Shown: one piece after another, positions 2,203 through 30,418 of the stretch | How the letters are laid out: every line of letters begins with the position of its first letter | Position numbering within the stretch: the first letter of the stretch is position 1 | Notes under the pieces: generated by a model | Databases searched by the model: none | What the model was told of the DNA's origin: nothing | The model's input: the letters and a program-made list of their open reading frames with translations, nothing else | Program-made: the position numbers and the translations under genes | DNA from: Candidatus Nomurabacteria bacterium RIFCSPHIGHO2_01_FULL_36_23 | GTDB lineage: Bacteria > Patescibacteriota > Minisyncoccia > Phycocordibacterales > UBA9973 | Direction of reading: 5' to 3' | Length of the DNA: 39,869 bases | Assembly: GCA_001786745.1 (NCBI GenBank) | Contig: MFTF01000008.1 | Location: 1 to 39,869, forward strand

Positions 2203-4965
2203 CTACTCCATCGTTTTATACCTCGCTATGATTTCATTTTCTACTTCGACGCGGTCGCGACCGTATTTGGCGTAGGAAAGTTCTTTTAAGTTATCCACTA
2301 TATCTTTATTCCCCGCTTCAGGCGCTAAAGTTTTTATATTAAAAGGCTTCACCGGCTGACCATTCACTAGCATGCTCATGTAAGCATTATAATTATCAAG
2401 TTTCGTAATATCCTGCGCGGAAAAAATTGGTTTAAATTTCTGCTCCAAGAAATTAGCGTCTTCGACGCCGACGCGAAATACCGCCATTGAACCCACATTG
2501 CCAAAAACGGCATTTTTGATATTTTCTTCCAGTTGGGTGATGTATTGATGAGCAAGGTTGAGCGAAAGTCGATATTTCCTGGCCTCAGATAAAATAGAAG
2601 AAATAGAATCGGTGGTAACATTTTGGAATTCATCAATATAAAGATAGAAGTCATTCATCGGATGACCAAACATATCCACCCGCGAGAGCGCCGCCATTTG
2701 AATTTTGCCGACAAGCACCAAACCGATTAAATTAGCATTGATATCGCCCAATCGTCCCTTGGATAGATTCACTAAGAGAATTTTTTTCTCATCCATAATT
2801 TTTCTGAAATTAAAAACGGAATTCTGTTGCAACACTACCGGACGCATAATATCGTTGGAAATAAAGTTATCAAATTTTGATGAAATATATGGCACGAAGT
2901 TCGCCAGCGACTGATCCCCCGTCGTCTGTTCAGCCGAAACCCAAAACTGCTTGATAATCGGATTTTTGCATCTAGATAATTTCAAATCGCGAAATTCTTT
3001 ATCGGCAAGCACTCTGGTAATCTCAAGTAGGGTTGAACCGGACTCTGGATCTTCCATTACTAAAAAAGCGCTATTTCTAAAATACTGCTCAAACATCGCT
3101 CCTCCACCTATTTTCATATCAAAAAGCTTGTTGAAAATTCCCATCAGCTCATTCACTACGAAAGTTTTTTGCTCAGGATATTTTGGATCATACTCCAGCA
3201 TATTGAGTCCCATCGGTCGCGCCGTATAAGCTGGATCAAAATAAATAACGTCATCAATGCGTTCTTTTGGGATACGAGATAGAATAGTTTGAATATCAGT
3301 GCCGTGTGGGTCAATATAACAGCAACCATCCCCGTTTTTGATGTCCTGCGTTATCATATTGAGCATAATGTTTGTTTTACCTGTTCCTGTTTGACCAATA
3401 GTATAAAAATGTCTCATTCGATCTTCACGCGCCATATGAATCTCGGTATCTCTGCCTCGATAGCTATTTATTCCTAAAATTATCCCCTCTTGACCCATTT
3501 CCAAAGGAACAGGGGCAATACCCGCTTTCGCCTCTTTAAGTTGAGGCTGACTGCCTATTCCTACTGGAAAATGAAAGACTGACGCAATCTCTTTTAAATT
3601 CATAGGCAGTACTTTGTCTCCTGTGAAGGATCGATAAGAAAAATCACGAAAAAGCTTTTTTAGGTCACTTCCTGTCGCTTCTTCAAAGACAAAAGAGTTG
3701 CTGGCCGCTTCAGAAAATTGATTGAAGGAAGATTCTATTTCTTTTAATATAGTTTGCGCTCGTTCTTTGGTTTCTCCAGACGCAATAATTCGAATATTGG
3801 CTTTCATAATCGTGCTTTTTACTTTATTTCCGATCTTTTCAACCGCCCCCTCATCCACTGCGCGCCGGCCCTTCATATATTTTTCTTTATTTTCTTCTTC
3901 TTTTTTTGCGCCAAAAAGAAGTTCTTTACCTGCTTTTAAAAAAGCTTTATTGAATTTATAAAAATTATCGGCTGCATGCTTGACGGACGTTCCGTCTTTA
4001 ACATCGTCTAATATCTTGTGAAATTCATTTATGAATTTATCCCCCGCAGGCGCAACCACCAGCTGAATCGCCGCTCCCTCGCCCTTTGTTTTTAATTTAG
4101 AAAATACATTAAGTATTGTATTCATAGGATCATGCTCTATGTTGTCATAAGTTTTTATTGGCATCACAGGACGCTCTGAGAAGCTGGCATAAGCGCCAAC
4201 TGAACTCCCTGTTTCATTGAAAATATTATAATCATCTGGCATCTCGCGAATTTTTGCATTATGGTAAAAAGCTAAAATCTGTTTCTCAAAAAGTGAAAGA
4301 TGTTTATTTGGTATTGCCGCATAGACAATTACTTCATCATTTTCCATGCTGAGAGCCACTTCCAGCGTAAAATAATTTTCTTTTTCGTTGTTCTCGCCGA
4401 TAGAAATGGAATGCATGCCGGCATAAAATTGCTCCATCGCGCCGATAAATTCTTTGAAACCTTTGGACTTGTCGGCTTCATCGGTGGGGGGCGGCAATGT
4501 TATTTCAAAAAGCGTCATATTGAGAGATTTATACAATGGCGTGCCTTCTTTGAAATCAAGCGTGGCTTGACCTGTTTTTAAATATTGGATTAGAACTCGG
4601 TGAAAATCATCGTCAATGTGCGGATTCTCCATAGCAAATGCCACAGAGAGCGCATTTTTAATTCCTTTAGTGATTATAATACCCAAAAGTTCTTCCATTA
4701 TACTGTCGTGGGATTCAGGCCGAAGCTGCAACACAATTCCAGCCGCTTCTTTTTCATTCAGAAGATTGCTCTTGTGAATCGCCTGTTCAGCTGGTACTTT
4801 ATGATATTCTAAAATTACGTCTCTAGCCGCATTATTTTTTGCTTGTTCAATATGCCCTGCCTTAATAAGTTCTTGCTCACGAGCTCGCACGTGAGCGCGC
4901 AAAAAACTAAGCTCTTCTTCGGGCGTCTTGAATTTTGGCATTTCCTTAAAAAGAAATGGTTCCAT
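2203..4965 (-). CDS. VirD4/TraD-like (T4SS coupling-protein-type) P-loop ATPase with a ~500-aa N-terminal region of unknown function
   Basis: Walker A GQTGTGKTN, Walker B-like FYLYIDEFQN, and C-terminal ARKYRLSLNLAHQY. No obvious N-terminal TM helices. ATG 4965 is preferred because a TATAAT lies 7 nt upstream; the track start is 5013. Confidence 0.7.
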   Translation of the reverse strand: MEPFLFKEMPKFKTPEEELSFLRAHVRAREQELIKAGHIEQAKNNAARDVILEYHKVPAEQAIHKSNLLNEKEAAGIVLQLRPESHDSIMEELLGIIITKGIKNALSVAFAMENPHIDDDFHRVLIQYLKTGQATLDFKEGTPLYKSLNMTLFEITLPPPTDEADKSKGFKEFIGAMEQFYAGMHSISIGENNEKENYFTLEVALSMENDEVIVYAAIPNKHLSLFEKQILAFYHNAKIREMPDDYNIFNETGSSVGAYASFSERPVMPIKTYDNIEHDPMNTILNVFSKLKTKGEGAAIQLVVAPAGDKFINEFHKILDDVKDGTSVKHAADNFYKFNKAFLKAGKELLFGAKKEEENKEKYMKGRRAVDEGAVEKIGNKVKSTIMKANIRIIASGETKERAQTILKEIESSFNQFSEAASNSFVFEEATGSDLKKLFRDFSYRSFTGDKVLPMNLKEIASVFHFPVGIGSQPQLKEAKAGIAPVPLEMGQEGIILGINSYRGRDTEIHMAREDRMRHFYTIGQTGTGKTNIMLNMITQDIKNGDGCCYIDPHGTDIQTILSRIPKERIDDVIYFDPAYTARPMGLNMLEYDPKYPEQKTFVVNELMGIFNKLFDMKIGGGAMFEQYFRNSAFLVMEDPESGSTLLEITRVLADKEFRDLKLSRCKNPIIKQFWVSAEQTTGDQSLANFVPYISSKFDNFISNDIMRPVVLQQNSVFNFRKIMDEKKILLVNLSKGRLGDINANLIGLVLVGKIQMAALSRVDMFGHPMNDFYLYIDEFQNVTTDSISSILSEARKYRLSLNLAHQYITQLEENIKNAVFGNVGSMAVFRVGVEDANFLEQKFKPIFSAQDITKLDNYNAYMSMLVNGQPVKPFNIKTLAPEAGNKDIVDNLKELSYAKYGRDRVEVENEIIARYKTME

Positions 4966-24724: not shown

Positions 24725-26875
24725 CTATTTCCTTGCCGCAATGATAGTTTCGGCAACATTTTGCGGAACAATATCGTAACGGAAGAATTCCATGGTGAAA
24801 GAAGCGCGGCCTTCGGTCATAGAACGCAGACCGGTCATATATCCGAACATTTCGGAAAGAGGCACAATAGCGCGAATAACTTTATTCATTCCTCTGTCTT
24901 CCATCCCTTCAATCAGCGCGCGCTTGGAAGAAAGATTGCCGGTAACATCGCCCATAAATTTTTCCGGAATAATAACTTCAACTTTCATCATGGGCTCTAG
25001 AATTACCGGAGTGGCTCTGCGACAAGCGTCTTGCACGGCCATACTTGAGGCAATTTTGAAAGCCATTTCGTTGGAATCCACTTCATGATAACTTCCATCC
25101 CAAAGTTCTACTGAAACATTGACCATTTTAAATCCAGCCAAAATTCCACGATCTAAACCTTCCTTGAATCCCTTTTCACAAGGCGCGATATATTCCTGCG
25201 GAATCATTCCTCCTCTAATAGAATTCACAAACTCAAAACCTGGTGATCTCTTGGTGTTTTTCGGTAAGTCTTCTAATTCTTCTTTTGTTAAGACGGTCAT
25301 TGGCTTTACTTTAATTTTTACGTGTCCATAGTTTCCACGTCCGCCGGATTGTTTAATATATTTGCCTTCTGCTTCAGCTGTGCCACTGATCGTCTCACGA
25401 TAAGCCACTTGCGGTTTGCCGACATTCGCCTCCACGGTAAATTCACGCTTCATTCTATCCACAATAATTTCTAAGTGTAATTCTCCCATACCAGCGATGA
25501 TAGTTTCCCCTGTTTCTTGGTCGGTGCTGACTTTAAAAGTGGGATCTTCTTGAGCCAGTCTATTTAAAGCCATTCCCATTTTTTCTTGGTCAGCTTTTGT
25601 CTTTGGTTCAATGCGAAGTGAAATAACTGGCTCGGGAAAAACAATTCTATCTAGAATGATTGGATTATTTTCATCACAAAGAGTATCTGAGGTAATAGTA
25701 TCTTTCAGACCCACCGCAGCTGCTATTTCTCCGGCAAAAACTTGTTTTACTTCTTCTCTGTCATTAGCGTGCATTCGTAAGATTCGGCCAATACGCTCTT
25801 TGTTGCGAGTACGCGGATTATAGACATAACTTCCAGCAGAGAGAATTCCTGAATATACACGAAAGAAAATAAGCTGGCCGACAAATGGATCGGTGGCAAC
25901 TTTAAAAGCAAGCGCCGCAAAAGGTTCTGAGTCAGAAGCATTTCTCGCAATTAGCTTGTCGTCATCATTTGGATCAATGCCCGGAATAGGCGGAATATCT
26001 GTCGGAGCTGGTAAGTAGTCCACTACGCCGTCGAGCACTAGTTGAATGCCTTTGTTTTTAAGCGCGGAACCGGCAAAAACTGGGAAAATTTTATTCGCGA
26101 TAACGGCTTTACGGAGAGTTTTCTTTAAGGTGTTAAAATCTGGAATCATACCCTCTAAATATTCTGTCATCATAACTTCATCTGTCTCAACTATTTTCTC
26201 CACAAGCTCAGAGTGATACTTTTCCGCATCGACCCTTAAATTTTCGGGAATATCTTTTTCTATAACTTTGTTCCCCATTTCTCCTTCAAAATAATATGCT
26301 TTCATGCGAAGAACATCAATGACTCCCTCAAACTTTTCTTCAAGCCCAATAGGAATCTGCATTCGGACAGCTTTTTTGCTTAGCCGGTCTAAAATTGTCG
26401 CATATGAATGTTCAAAAGAAGCGCCGATTCTATCCAGTTTATTAATAAAACAAATACGAGGCACTTTGGCTTCATCCGCATAGCGCCAATTTGTTTCCGA
26501 TTGCGGTTCCACTCCGGCCACGCCATCAAAAACAACAACGGCGCCATCCAGAACACGCAGAGAACGTTTTACTTCTACGGTAAAATCAATGTGTCCGGGA
26601 GTGTCAATAATATTAAAGCGATGCTTCTTATTTTTATCAGTGAGAGCGTATGTGGGTGTCCAAAAACATGTCACTGCGGCAGAGGTGATAGTAATACCGC
26701 GCTCCCTTTCTTGCTCCATCCAATCAGTAACCGTATCACCTTCATGAACTTCACCAATTTTATGCGATACACCAGTATAAAAAAGCACGCGTTCAGTCGT
26801 GGTCGTTTTACCCGCATCAATGTGCGCGATAATTCCAATATTCCTGACTTTTTCTAGGGGGTAATCTCGTTCCAT
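24725..26875 (-). CDS. fusA: elongation factor G
   Basis: [20 protein letters not shown]...DTPGHIDF...NKLDR. 716 aa. Confidence 0.98.
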
Positions 26876-26939
26876 ATATATTTCATAAGATTAAAATAAC
26901 CACTCCTCGCCTCGTAGGAAGCTTTGCTTTCCTTCGGGG

Positions 26940-26982
26940 TTCCAATATTTCTGACTTCCTCTAGTGGATAATCCCGTTCCAT
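26940..26982 (-). pseudogene. duplicated fusA 5' fragment (first 14 codons), 107 nt upstream of the real fusA start
   Basis: ATGGAACGGGATTATCCACTAGAGGAAGTCAGAAATATTGGAA versus the real ATGGAACGAGATTACCCCCTAGAAAAAGTCAGGAATATTGGAA. They match at 37 of 43 positions, and 5 of the 6 differences are synonymous. Confidence 0.85.
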
Positions 26983-27007
26983 ATAATAAAAAGCGCCTCA
27001 TGCGCTT
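26983..27007 (-). terminator. intrinsic terminator-like hairpin after the inserted two-gene island
   Basis: Minus strand reads AAGCGC-atgag-GCGCTT followed by TTTTATTAT. Confidence 0.5.
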
Positions 27008-27044
27008 GAAACACTATATATCATAAAGCTGTTTTTTGCAATAC

Positions 27045-27078
27045 ATAACAAAAATTTCCTTTTGGAAATTTTTGTTAT
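27045..27078. repeat. perfect 15-bp AT-rich hairpin with 4-nt loop
   Basis: ATAACAAAAATTTCC-tttt-GGAAATTTTTGTTAT, 17 nt beyond the stop of the 27096 ORF. Confidence 0.8.
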
Positions 27079-27095
27079 TATTATTTTCAGCGCTG

Positions 27096-27371
27096 CTAAA
27101 CAGAGTAACCCGGAACCTTATTCCAAGAAATTATTTGTGATGATTCTGGATTTATATTGTGTATGTCAACTCCAAAATCTTTTACAACACCACCATACAC
27201 TTCAGCCATTTTTTGTGCTTTTTGTTTGTTATCTTCTCCTTCATTAAAAGTTGCCAAAAATAATCTTTCGCCTTCACCTTCTAAAAAGGTTCCTTTCAGT
27301 TGCTCCTGTCTCTCTTTAACTCCTAATCCTTGTTCCATAAAATTTATATTTAATAAATTAATAATATCCAT
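27096..27371 (-). CDS. hypothetical small acidic protein
   Basis: MDIINLLNINFMEQGLGVKERQEQLKGTFLEGEGERLFLATFNEGEDNKQKAQKMAEVYGG... No family recognised. Track start 27392 (GTG) reads through a G9 tract. Confidence 0.4.
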   Translation of the reverse strand: MDIINLLNINFMEQGLGVKERQEQLKGTFLEGEGERLFLATFNEGEDNKQKAQKMAEVYGGVVKDFGVDIHNINPESSQIISWNKVPGYSV

Positions 27372-27378
27372 AAGTGTA

Positions 27379-27387
27379 CCCCCCCCC
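27379..27387. repeat. homopolymeric C9 (G9 on the coding strand) 8 nt upstream of ATG 27371
   Basis: taCCCCCCCCCgac in an AT-rich genome. Confidence 0.9.
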
Positions 27388-27428
27388 GACACAGAAAGTC
27401 AAGCAATCCTAAAAGCGCTTAGGGCTGA

Positions 27429-27468
27429 AACTATACATATATACGCGATAGCGTATATATGTATAGTT
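27429..27468. repeat. palindrome P1: 18-bp perfect inverted repeat with 4-nt loop, downstream of the Cas2-fold gene
   Basis: AACTATACATATATACGC-gata-GCGTATATATGTATAGTT. Confidence 0.9.
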
Positions 27469-27475
27469 ATGAATC

Positions 27476-27850
27476 TTATATATTATTCCCCTTCCCTGTA
27501 TATGCTTTTGCTAATTTGAATGTCTTCAGGTGCTCCGACAATCCAATTGCCTTTACATAATCTAAAAATTCTTTTGGTAAAGGCGAAGGTCCGACCCAAA
27601 TACTTCTTTGGATCATTATGTAATCAAAATTTTTAAGTTGCCGGCGAAACCAGTCCCTTTCCTTCTTTTTTTCTTCAGTGACGTCATACATCAAAATTAA
27701 ATTCTTCGGTAAATCTTTTGTAAAAGGAGAAGAAAAAGCGGTATGATAGAAATTTCTTTTTCTGTTCTTTTTCTTTATACGATTTTGCTTTTTGTATTTC
27801 AAAACTGGCAAGCCAAAAGCATTTACTCGCATCCCTTTATAATAAGTCAT
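27476..27850 (-). CDS. small Cas2-fold / PaaX-C-like protein with a very basic N-terminus
   Basis: LILMYDVTEEKKKERDWFRRQLKNFDYIMIQRSIWVGP matches the beta-alpha-beta pattern (hydrophobic strand-YD-...R...L...-Q.S.W/F) shared by Cas2, VapD and the PaaX effector domain. Pattern recognition only. Confidence 0.5.
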   Translation of the reverse strand: MTYYKGMRVNAFGLPVLKYKKQNRIKKKNRKRNFYHTAFSSPFTKDLPKNLILMYDVTEEKKKERDWFRRQLKNFDYIMIQRSIWVGPSPLPKEFLDYVKAIGLSEHLKTFKLAKAYTGKGNNI

Positions 27851-27856
27851 TCATTA

Positions 27857-27862
27857 ATTATA
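27857..27862 (-). promoter_or_regulatory. -10 box TATAAT, 6 nt upstream of ATG 27850
   Basis: Minus strand reads TATAAT-taatga-ATG. Palindrome P2 occupies the -35 region. Confidence 0.4.
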
Positions 27863-27869
27863 CACTGAT

Positions 27870-27899
27870 TACATATATACGCTATAGCGTAAATGTGTA
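27870..27899. repeat. palindrome P2: imperfect copy of P1 over the promoter of the Cas2-fold gene
   Basis: TACATATATACGCTATAGCGTAAATGTGTA shares the ACATATATACGC..GCGTA core with P1. Confidence 0.8.
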
Positions 27900-27940
27900 T
27901 AAATGTTTTTATTACAGAAAAACAGAAAGCTGTAGCTCCC

Positions 27941-28411
27941 CTACCAAGCAAGATGAGCAAAAGCTTTATTGGCTTCGGCCATTTTGTGCGTGTCTTCTTT
28001 CTTTTTAATAGCCGAACCTTCGTTCTTGGAAGCGGCGATTAATTCATCAGCCAATTTTAAATGCATTGGTTTACCTTTTCCACCACGGGCCGCATCGCGA
28101 ATCCATCGCATAGCTAAAGCAACACGGCGCTCAGCTCTGACTTCTATGGGCACCTGATAATTTGCGCCTCCGATGCGCTTGGAACGCACTTCAGTTGAAG
28201 GCCCAGTATTTCTCATTGCTAAATCAAAAATCTCAAGCGGATTTGGATTGCCTGTTTTTTCTTTAATTACATCAAAAGCTTTATATATAACTTTTCTGGA
28301 AGTTTCTTTTTTCCCGGACCACATAATATAGTTAATAAACTTCTCTAATTTTTGAGAATTGTAGATGAAGTCTGGTTCTACTATATTTCTATTTTTAACC
28401 TTGCGTCGCAT
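27941..28411 (-). CDS. rpsG: 30S ribosomal protein S7
   Basis: MRRKVKNRNIVEPDFIYNSQ...RIGGANYQVPIEV. Confidence 0.97.
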   Translation of the reverse strand: MRRKVKNRNIVEPDFIYNSQKLEKFINYIMWSGKKETSRKVIYKAFDVIKEKTGNPNPLEIFDLAMRNTGPSTEVRSKRIGGANYQVPIEVRAERRVALAMRWIRDAARGGKGKPMHLKLADELIAASKNEGSAIKKKEDTHKMAEANKAFAHLAW

Positions 28412-28413
28412 AA

Positions 28414-28839
28414 TTATTTTTTGTTATCTTTTTTGAGTTTTTTGTTTCCATATAAAGATCTGCCTTGTCTGCGTTTTTCAACTCCTTGGGTGTCTAAAAC
28501 TCCACGCACTATGTGATACCTTACTCCAATCAAATCTTTCACCCGTCCTCCGCGAAGCATGACCACTGAGTGCTCCTGTAAATTATGACCTTCTCCGGGA
28601 ATATAGGCCGTAACTTCCATACCATTGGTCAAACGCACCCTGGCGATCTTTCGCAGAGCTGAATTGGGTTTCTTGGGGGTTGTAGTTGAAACTTTTACGC
28701 AAACGCCACGCTTGAAAGGTGCTGGGGAAAAAACCGGTCGATTTTTTAAGACGTTAAATCCTTTAGCTAGAGCAACAGTCTTGTGTTTAGAATGAACTCT
28801 TGTCCTATTTTTTTTAATTAATTGATTGATTGTTGGCAT
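28414..28839 (-). CDS. rpsL: 30S ribosomal protein S12
   Basis: [10 protein letters not shown]...[20 protein letters not shown]. Confidence 0.97.
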
Positions 28840-29934: not shown

Positions 29935-30171
29935 CTATTTTTTCTTTTTTAACAGAATCACTAATTCTTCTTTTGAAATATCTAAATCGGTCAAAATTCC
30001 CAAAAGTGTGCCCTTAGGAATTTCTTTGTTCCTGTGAATTGGAATAGTGATTTTCTTTCCGTTGGAATGTCGAAGCACGTGATGGCTGCCTTGTGTGTGA
30101 TCTAAGGCATATCCTATTCTTTGCAGAATTTTCAAAAGTTGTTTGCCTTTTACATTTGGCAGTTTAGGCAT
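29935..30171 (-). CDS. hicA: HicA-family mRNA interferase toxin (second copy)
   Basis: MPKLPNVKGKQLLKILQRIGYALDHTQGSHHVLRHSNGKKITIPIH. ATG 30171 is preferred. Confidence 0.8.
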   Translation of the reverse strand: MPKLPNVKGKQLLKILQRIGYALDHTQGSHHVLRHSNGKKITIPIHRNKEIPKGTLLGILTDLDISKEELVILLKKKK

Positions 30172-30418
30172 ACACCTTCCTGCTAGTAGAAAAAATCGGG
30201 ATCGAGACAGTTTCGATGGATTGAAGTCCATTATCGGCTGGAATTACATCCCCATGTTTAGAGCAAGAAAGAAGATAGCCCTCAATCGCTTCGTTTAGAT
30301 TCTTTTTTGTTTCTTCAATAGTTTTGCCATAAGTATGGCACCCCAAAAGGGTTGGCACAAAACCATGATATTGTTTACCGTCTTTTTCAATTATTGTACG
30401 AAATGAATAACTTTTCAT
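30164..30418 (-). CDS. hicB: HicB-family antitoxin (second copy)
   Basis: FRTIIEKDGKQYHGFVPTLLGCHTYGKTIEETKKNLNEAIEGYL. Overlaps hicA by 8 nt. Confidence 0.8.
   Translation of the reverse strand: MKSYSFRTIIEKDGKQYHGFVPTLLGCHTYGKTIEETKKNLNEAIEGYLLSCSKHGDVIPADNGLQSIETVSIPIFSTSRKVYA

Follow-up and report, generated by a model that had tools for sequence, protein, structure and literature searches.

Candidatus Nomurabacteria bacterium RIFCSPHIGHO2_01_FULL_36_23 carries a 1.06-kb island between the genes rpsG and fusA, and the core of this island is a palindrome-bracketed gene that recurs as a module in more than 100 lineages. The whole stretch of DNA that was analysed (contig MFTF01000008.1, 39,869 nt) is referred to as the window. 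The gene in question, open reading frame 1 (ORF1), encodes a protein of 124 amino acids (aa) with a Cas2-like domain; the gene and its relatives are termed Cas2L. It is flanked by two copies of a 30-bp dyad-symmetric palindrome, P2 upstream and P1 downstream. The reading that we favour, and to which we give an even chance of being right, is that ORF1 encodes a dimeric, site-specific nucleic-acid-binding 'mini-PaaX' protein that regulates its own gene at P2 and serves as a mark of gene ends.

The dyad-promoter-gene-dyad module

All genes of the region lie on the minus strand and follow each other in transcription order as rpsL (28414-28839), rpsG (27941-28411), the 1.06-kb island and fusA (24725-26875). 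The rpsG-fusA junction is normally invariant. The module within the island consists of four parts:

27870-27901, no strand: P2, upstream copy of the 30-bp dyad, found by repeat search; it spans about -20 to -50 of the ORF1 promoter
27857-27862, minus strand: -10 hexamer TATAAT of the ORF1 promoter, 6 nt 5' of the ATG, without a Shine-Dalgarno sequence and presumably leaderless
27476-27850, minus strand: ORF1, 124 aa, 'mini-PaaX' or Cas2L, with a PaaX_M Cas2-fold domain at about residues 49-117
27429-27468, no strand: P1, downstream copy of the dyad, with perfect 18-bp arms and the centre TATC (minus strand)

On the minus strand P2 reads TACACATTTACGC-TATA-GCGTATATATGTA, and P1 begins 7 nt past the ORF1 stop codon. 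The core common to both palindromes gave four matches in the window (two sites, both strands), compared with 0.00 expected from shuffles.

The survey of the module covered about 25 loci from genomes and 80 from metagenomes. The recurrent order is a 30-bp dyad, a fixed gap of 10-11 nt, TATAAT, 6 nt, ATG, the gene and a second dyad, and both dyads were found in 61 of the 68 metagenome loci that have room on both sides. In 52 of 58 distinct metagenome loci, 19-21 nt separate the end of the upstream dyad from the ATG, and the genome loci agree with this. A TATAAT box matching in at least five of six positions is present in 54 of 59 loci, in 47 of them at a distance of exactly 6 nt from the ATG; the hexamer is likewise conserved in 20 of 25 genome loci. 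The bases between dyad and -10 box vary while their number stays constant, no -35 hexamer is apparent and the dyad centre falls at about -34.5. Shine-Dalgarno-like motifs occur in four of 59 loci, and the Cas2L transcript would be leaderless. Because the spacing is fixed relative to a -10 box located downstream of the dyad, the upstream copy probably acts at the DNA level in controlling the Cas2L promoter. This arrangement is closely tied to the gene, as 20 of the 22 palindrome sides showing the dyad-TATAAT-ATG order belong to Cas2L genes. The downstream dyad is placed more loosely, starting between -1 and about 36 nt past the stop codon and usually 3-20 nt past it. The idea that P1 serves as an activator site for the next promoter was rejected, as its distance to the next -35 box ranges from 5 to 29 nt with no fixed phase.

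The rpsG-fusA junction is the location of 15 of about 29 genome loci and of 20 of 53 assessable metagenome loci, which amounts to about 40% of modules overall. In the relatives L001, L003 and L005, for example, the Cas2L gene lies between rpsG and fusA with a palindrome of about 30 nt on each side. Modules located elsewhere, such as after a Pif1 helicase gene, keep both dyads.

A Cas2-like protein derived from winged-helix relatives

The first-pass annotation had proposed a Cas2/VapD/PaaX-like fold for the 124-aa protein, and profile and structure searches bear this out. The best Pfam match is PaaX_M (PF20803, 'PaaX central Cas2-like domain') with 49.3 bits at a cut-off of 24 (E = 5e-13). CRISPR_Cas2 (PF09827) scores marginally, with 26.6 bits at a cut-off of 23.8 and over residues 51-97 only; TIGR01573 is narrowly passed (25.6 bits, cut-off 24.5), TIGR02277 scores 12.8 bits, far below its cut-off of 264, and PADLOC returned weak Cas2 matches. 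The Pfam search gave neither a helix-turn-helix nor a PaaX_C match. The AlphaFold model (pLDDT 68) contains a beta-alpha-beta-beta-alpha-beta core at residues 49-117, for which a Foldseek search of the PDB listed Cas2 proteins first, at TM scores of about 0.5-0.6 (target-normalised), and VapD and PaaX lower down.

The family comprises 1,550 homologous clusters, all of them from Patescibacteria (Paceibacterota, Nomurabacteria, Staskawiczbacteria and others). Among the matches listed, homologues are 65-88% identical to ORF1, and the conservation extends to the N-terminal 48 residues, which contain a YYKGxRVNxFGLP motif (YYKG..GLP) and an NRKRNFY stretch. The Asp of the Cas2-like YD(V/I) motif (D56 in YDV, the Cas2 catalytic position) is invariant in the family alignment, and among 24 aligned sequences no invariant His and no HUH/catalytic-Tyr signature was found. 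Databases name the homologues either 'CRISPR-associated endonuclease Cas2' or 'PaaX'. The 'Cas2' labels are a systematic misannotation, and the genes are not CRISPR Cas2. Our literature search found no paper on the family, on Cas2-like proteins or PaaX in connection with Patescibacteria, or on PaaX in connection with Cas2.

As expected from the first description of an orphan Cas2-like fold, the window contains neither a CRISPR array nor direct repeats of CRISPR type, whether tandem or interspaced, and no Cas1 Pfam family occurs among the neighbour genes in the nine loci inspected, so that a CRISPR remnant was rejected as an explanation. The protein resembles Cas2 and VapD in its ferredoxin-like beta-alpha-beta-beta-alpha-beta fold and the YD(V/I) motif with its invariant Asp, and it resembles Cas2 in being associated with palindromic repeats of about 30 nt. 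In contrast to Cas2, its locus lacks cas1, an array and spacers, and the repeats bracket the gene itself; unlike both Cas2 and VapD, it has an additional conserved N-terminal region of 48 aa and no conserved antitoxin partner. An origin as phage or mobile-element cargo was also rejected: no ORF1 homologue was found on IMG/VR contigs, and the six viral matches to the palindrome pattern have different centres (GCAC, CACG, AATT and similar) and are unrelated. With its strong conservation and mostly single copy, the Cas2L gene behaves like a resident gene and not like a toxin.

An exhaustive search for relatives returned 1,042 representative proteins, most of which are about 160 aa long and have the YYKG..GLP motif and the Cas2-like domain in common with ORF1. 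These long relatives possess an extra N-terminal helix, and a recognition helix and wing at the place where ORF1 has just 'KQNRIKKKNRKRN'. In the alignment, helix 1 and the recognition helix plus wing are deleted in ORF1, which carries a K/R-rich stretch there. The model of one long relative (P0122, pLDDT 92) has E. coli PaaX (8a39) as its best PDB match, and its N-terminal domain matches operator-bound winged helices, among them those of CggR, MarR and IdeR. Judged from these alignments, ORF1 is a derivative of two-domain proteins, consisting of a winged helix-turn-helix (wHTH) and PaaX_M, with apparent loss of the winged helix. P0122, the closest long relative, belongs to the locus L136, where it sits 2 kb away from an empty site at which rpsG and fusA are adjacent.

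Several long relatives have palindromes of their own. Palindromes unlike that of the window flank the gene on both sides at L032 (42 nt) and L137 (38 nt), a palindrome is present on one side only at L008 (upstream) and L122 (downstream), and L136 carries a dyad of the window type. It is thus characteristic of the family that its genes are flanked by cognate palindromes. The palindromes of the winged-helix paralogues (L032:3505-3546 and 4112-4163; L137:2941-2990 and 3480-3517; L008:2410-2447; L122:396-425) are 30-42 nt long and all have a GC-NATN-GC centre; at L032 a -10-like TACAAT is located inside the palindrome arm, 7 nt before the ATG.

PaaX itself (COG3327, PDB 8a39) is the phenylacetyl-CoA-responsive repressor of E. 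coli. The likeness of ORF1 to PaaX consists of a central PaaX_M (Cas2-like) domain that scores over the Pfam cut-off, of the long Patescibacteria relatives whose wHTH plus Cas2-like layout finds its best structural match in PaaX, and of a palindromic site at the promoter of the Cas2L gene itself. It differs from PaaX in that the winged helix, the PaaX C-terminal domain and a paa operon are missing, that the gene is bracketed by two 30-bp dyads which are also dispersed at the 3' ends of other genes, and that the promoter is probably leaderless.

Dispersed dyads at gene ends

A dyad pattern scan that covered 185,579 species genomes returned at least 119 stretches. Among the matches listed, about 90 are from Patescibacteria; the rest, 29 or so, differ in their centres and probably have no relation to the dyad. 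Single assemblies carry dyads on several contigs, with eight sites in JBAZYH01, which is about the highest number per assembly among the matches listed. About three extra dyads were counted in the 616 kb surrounding Cas2L genes, and a genome is therefore expected to hold a handful of copies. The sites are intergenic. Within 60 nt of a gene other than Cas2L, 52 are located at 3' ends versus 16 at 5' ends, and some orphan dyads lie between convergent genes with just 3-5 nt to each side.

Within 700 nt of 66 dyad sites, neither a Cas2L gene nor a remnant of one is present. Decay of former Cas2L modules was thus rejected as the source of orphan dyads, as a gene fragment is found nearby at L071 only. 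That fragment (L071:7298-7411) encodes 38 aa, is 84% identical and stands beside a P1-type dyad, and represents a decayed module copy. The genes that flank orphan dyads are heterogeneous and include UvrC, SpoU, Pif1, ThyA, the CCA-adding enzyme and a Cys-rich protein of about 570 aa. A classical promoter-operator regulon was rejected on these grounds, together with the restriction of the dyad-TATAAT-ATG order to the Cas2L gene.

Some dyad positions are kept across genera, such as before spoU (five genomes) and after the gene of the Cys-rich protein (at least eight). At the convergent junction between cca and the Cys-rich gene, L035 and L055 have nothing but the dyad in the intergenic space, and in L060 its position is taken by an ordinary GC hairpin flanked by A/T runs; the dyad at the 3' end of cca is accordingly present in L035 and L055 and absent from L052 and L060. 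Two of the conserved positions are described further here. Between uvrC and the SpoU-family methyltransferase gene (L126:5579-5602, L125:1053-1076, L086:6331-6354, L100:802-825 and L058:321-344) the dyad directly adjoins or overlaps the start codon of spoU in most of the five genomes, where it could occlude the translation start or promoter of spoU. The Cys-rich family (L035:3276-4982, L013, L014, L083, L103, L088, L112 and others) has many CxxC pairs, often occurs in tandem copies and gave no Pfam or PDB match; the dyad follows its stop codon by 3-45 nt in at least eight genomes.

The assembly JBAZYH01 contains two Cas2L genes (L050:7040-7429 and L068:1995-2378) with 74% identity to each other. 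The dyads around one have CATG centres and those around the other TATA centres, and both types are also found as orphans elsewhere in the assembly. The two genes may be true paralogues, each with cognate sites of its own, or stem from two strains that were binned together.

Symmetry and co-variation of the dyad

The two arms of the dyad change together. In an alignment of 102 distinct flanking dyads, nine of 13 arm pairs show double changes, and the covariation score of 0.313 compares with 0.117 in shuffles (0 of 500 reached the observed value); slid controls gave far lower scores. The outer block switches jointly from ACACAT/ATGTGT to CCCCAT/ATGGGG, and the inner block from ACGC/GCGT to CAAC/GTTG or GGCC/GGCC. 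The variant type tends to match between the upstream and downstream copies of a locus and the orphan dyads of the same assembly. Two independent switches of the inner core (ACGC to CAAC and ACGC to GGCC) coincide with a K62R exchange at the start of helix alpha-1, which is no more than a hint at a specificity contact. Nearly all sites have NATN as their 4-nt centre; in 64 of 109 it is CATG or TATA and thereby self-complementary, a property that fits the recognition of a dyad better than a free hairpin loop.

Among the downstream copies the variant ACATWTTTACGC-TATC-GCGCATATRTGT is common, and its two mismatches are kept. The orientation of such P1-type copies is fixed relative to the gene, with TATC in ten cases and GATA in one. 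In addition, some orphan dyads sit on GC-rich terminator stems, exactly in the loop (L116 and L062).

Functional interpretation of the module

According to the mini-PaaX reading, the island would be a composite of a persistent dyad-gene-dyad module, a phase-variable cargo slot and a recombination scar. The vertically persistent module would consist of P2, a leaderless promoter with a -10 box only, the mini-PaaX gene and P1. Its protein would be descended from two-domain PaaX-like regulators of Patescibacteria, with a Lys/Arg-rich stretch kept in place of the lost winged helix, and would bind the 30-bp dyad as a symmetric dimer. Binding at P2, over the -35 region, would control the promoter of the mini-PaaX gene itself, and binding at P1 and the few other copies located after stop codons may provide a gene-end mark or insulator, either as a protein roadblock or as a protein-assisted terminator. 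A promoter with a poly-G spacer would drive a lineage-specific cargo ORF (ORF2 in the window) as a phase-variable contingency slot, and recombination would have left behind, ahead of today's fusA start, the ancestral leader of the gene with its first 14 codons.

Several observations weigh against a protein of this kind. The subfamily found in the window is devoid of the winged helix that normally reads DNA, and a perfect dyad of 30 bp is long for an operator. Orphan dyads are mostly situated away from promoters, in some cases between convergent genes, which is unusual for the regulon of a transcription factor. Beyond the 24-nt core the flanks are complementary yet unconserved, with extensions of at least 6 bp in 30 of 109 sites versus 2.4 expected; this pattern points to the formation of a hairpin or cruciform in addition to binding of the duplex. 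Finally, a symmetric dimer on duplex DNA does not explain the fixed mismatches and fixed orientation of the P1-type copies.

An alternative is a system resembling the RAYT/REP (REPIN) systems of Proteobacteria (PMC3337134, PMC3116915), built here on a Cas2 fold. ORF1 would then be a domesticated nuclease or strand-transfer enzyme that reads the palindrome as a DNA hairpin; the flanking dyads would be the ends of an ancestral element and the dispersed copies non-autonomous derivatives that are spread or maintained by the protein. We regard this as unlikely, even though the architecture fits the published hallmarks: RAYT genes are short, single-copy or present as distinct paralogues, and flanked by palindromes of which extragenic copies exist, each gene is paired with a palindrome type, and A/T runs surround some copies (PMC3337134). 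The Cas2L gene is likewise short, single-copy, vertically inherited and palindrome-flanked, its palindromes are extragenic and often located at 3' ends, and paralogues pair with palindrome types, as seen in the 74%-identical genes of JBAZYH01 with their CATG- and TATA-type dyads and orphans of both. Further support comes from the retention of both dyads in many genomic contexts, from the orphan dyads in the loops of terminator stems at L116 and L062, which look as if inserted there, from the P1-type palindrome, whose imperfection, kept mismatches and fixed orientation recall the ends of IS200/IS605 elements, and from the invariant D56 at the Cas2 catalytic position. On the other hand, the Cas2L fold is a different one, and neither the HUH/catalytic-Tyr signature nor a Y1_Tnp Pfam match, even at E <= 10, was found in ORF1. 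The copy number is low, a handful per genome (about three extra sites in 616 kb and about eight at most per assembly among the matches listed) versus tens to hundreds for REP sequences. Many copies hold the same position across genus-level divergence and are therefore probably not recently mobile, the closest relatives of the protein are wHTH regulators, the upstream dyad is phase-locked to a promoter, and the gene was not found on the viral contigs of IMG/VR. By analogy with these systems, the Cas2-fold protein and its palindromes of about 30 bp might also form an autonomous, vertically maintained repeat-protein system in which a hairpin or cruciform is recognised, and perhaps nicked, at gene ends, a proposal that we consider quite unlikely. 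Such a protein would be a free-living Cas2 relative that reads repeats, and in the window it would be coupled to the phase-variable cargo slot of the str operon.

Recognition could alternatively take place on RNA. A Cas2/VapD-like protein would in this case bind or cleave transcribed 3'-end hairpins through its Arg/Lys-rich segment, and the hairpins, in one case positioned over a start codon, would control the stability, processing or termination of mRNAs. The structural matches of ORF1 do include endoribonucleases (3exc, 'RNase SSO8090'; 3ui3 is VapD), and dyads are found just past stop codons, abut or overlap the spoU start codon in several genomes and stand in for an ordinary terminator at one convergent junction. 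P1 folds with -24.2 kcal/mol (z = -8.9), the outer stem is complementary outside the conserved core, and sense-strand G.U pairs occur in the palindromes around the wHTH relatives at L136 and L137. Nevertheless, a signal of RNA pairing was not detected: on the sense strand the outer stem has 8 G.U and 7 A.C combinations and the core 4 and 23, and the covariation alignment likewise has no excess of G.U over A.C. The 4-nt 'loop' is held to NATN and is mostly self-complementary, neither of which a loop needs, P2 lies upstream of its own transcription start and is yet phase-locked to the -10 box, and a U-tract is missing at most copies. No Rfam family matches the window, by which a known RNA family was rejected. 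Recognition at the RNA level is thus judged to be improbable.

The cargo slot and its poly-G promoter

The remainder of the island and its borders contain the following features:

27941-28411, minus strand: rpsG (ribosomal protein S7), the upstream island border; Ribosomal_S7 orthologues were found by tblastn at the equivalent place in relatives
27924-27941, minus strand: terminator-like hairpin and T-run directly 3' of the rpsG stop codon
27373-27402, minus strand: sigma-70-type promoter TTGACT-N18-TACACT for the cargo ORF, with a poly-G tract within the spacer
27379-27387, minus strand: G9 homopolymer in the spacer of the cargo promoter
27096-27338, minus strand: ORF2, acidic cargo ORF in its 80-aa version (the longest frame extends to 27392 and encodes 98 aa)
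27045-27078, no strand: perfect 15-bp hairpin after ORF2 (-16.3 kcal/mol, z = -7.7), the likely terminator of the cargo transcript
26986-27041, minus strand: ancestral fusA promoter and leader, TTGCAA-17-TATAGT followed by a terminator-like hairpin at 26991-27015
26940-26985, minus strand: relic of the fusA 5' end, a start codon and 14 codons that head a 42-aa dead-end ORF
26879-26939, minus strand: 61 nt between the relic and the working fusA start, with no detectable homologue
24725-26875, minus strand: fusA (EF-G), the downstream island border

The elements listed by the first-pass annotation, namely the island, P1, P2, the TATAAT-6-ATG promoter, the G9 tract, the hairpin and the terminator, were all found where it had placed them. 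Three of its entries needed refinement. The G9 tract lies inside the spacer of the cargo promoter, and the acidic ORF, which exists as described, had been given a length of 91-98 aa. Because a transcript from this promoter would begin past the start codons of the 98- and 91-aa versions, the 80-aa version (27096-27338) is the most likely product. The duplicated 5' fragment of fusA, which is considered below, is the third.

ORF2 (pI 4.8) has no homologue but itself in 5.8 billion proteins, and no match in Pfam, NCBIfam, PADLOC or PHROG. In relatives whose Cas2L proteins are 70-87% identical, the slot between the downstream palindrome and fusA contains either nothing (L001) or ORFs of 75-199 aa; some of these encode membrane proteins and some acidic coiled-coil-like proteins, none of which resembles ORF2 or another. 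ORF1 and ORF2 had been put forward as a basic, nuclease-like protein and its acidic partner in a palindrome-autoregulated toxin-antitoxin, addiction or defence cassette, and co-occurrence of the pair elsewhere was surveyed and not found in other genomes. The proposal was rejected and strikes us as barely credible: although VapD toxins have a Cas2 fold too, ORF1 is basic and ORF2 acidic, and a palindrome is located at the promoter, ORF2 is an orphan with its own, phase-variable promoter, the slot ORFs of all other lineages are mutually unrelated or absent while Cas2L is constant, PADLOC, Pfam and PHROG gave nothing useful in its support, and ORF1 is, unlike a toxin gene, 65-88% identical across a class-level clade. 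What remains of the cassette is a self-contained, probably self-regulated Cas2L unit in which ORF2 is not a partner.

The length of the G tract differs between contigs of the same species. Assembly consensus sequences give G6 (L219 and L221), G9 (the window and L223) and G10 (L220 and L222), corresponding to promoter spacers of 15, 18 and 19 nt, and the five same-species contigs are 99.6-99.9% identical over 1.16 kb. The motif TTGAC-N9-polyG-TAYACT also follows P1 elsewhere, with G7-G10 and in each case before a different ORF (L005, L039, L133, L142, L147, L150 and L151). Variation of this kind probably represents promoter phase variation of a hypervariable cargo gene by slipped-strand mispairing. 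Phase variation through poly-G or poly-C tracts in promoter spacers is known in Neisseria and Campylobacter (PMC8355987, PMC5084427). The similarity lies in the position of the tract between the -35 and -10 boxes and in its variable length among near-identical genomes and among lineages. The differences are a host from the Candidate Phyla Radiation (CPR) and the location of the tract inside the str ribosomal operon and before a lineage-specific orphan ORF. A literature search returned no paper in which the Candidate Phyla Radiation is treated together with phase variation or homopolymeric tracts.

The fusA relic and neighbouring genes

The fusA 5' copy at 26940-26985 is 87% identical to the first 46 nt of fusA (26833-26878). 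It had been taken for a mere duplicate; the fragment does exist, but it belongs to an ancestral promoter and leader plus 14 codons and not to a random duplication. The window sequence from 27041 to 26940 is homologous to the sequence that lies immediately upstream of, and enters, fusA in all relatives, and it comprises the TTGCAA-17-TATAGT promoter, the hairpin, an ATG and 14 codons. The 61 nt between the two fusA starts have no homologue in the window or in 138 loci. The arrangement is best read as a probable recombination scar in a variable slot. The relic heads an ORF of 42 aa (26854-26982) that overlaps the true start codon of fusA, so that the two could be translationally coupled.

A genuine toxin-antitoxin pair is located about 2 kb from the island. 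It consists of a HicA toxin (98 aa, PF07927) and a HicB-like antitoxin (84 aa, PF15919/UPF0150) at 29935-30418 of the window on the minus strand, adjoins the L28 gene and lies just upstream of the L28 / M50 peptidase / rpsL block.

Implications for gene control in Patescibacteria

Patescibacteria have tiny genomes with few recognisable regulators, and no genetics is available for them; to our knowledge, almost nothing is known about how they control their genes. A very large and conserved family, so far labelled 'Cas2' or 'PaaX', is now given a clear cis-element in the form of its cognate 30-bp dyad, and a conserved promoter architecture, presumably leaderless, is defined. The rpsG-fusA junction emerges as a preferred home of the module in many lineages. 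With the poly-G polymorphism, promoter phase variation in a CPR bacterium may for the first time have support at the sequence level. If the protein were indeed to act on hairpin DNA, the module would constitute a second, independently evolved system of the REP/RAYT type and a repeat-associated relative of Cas2 outside CRISPR.

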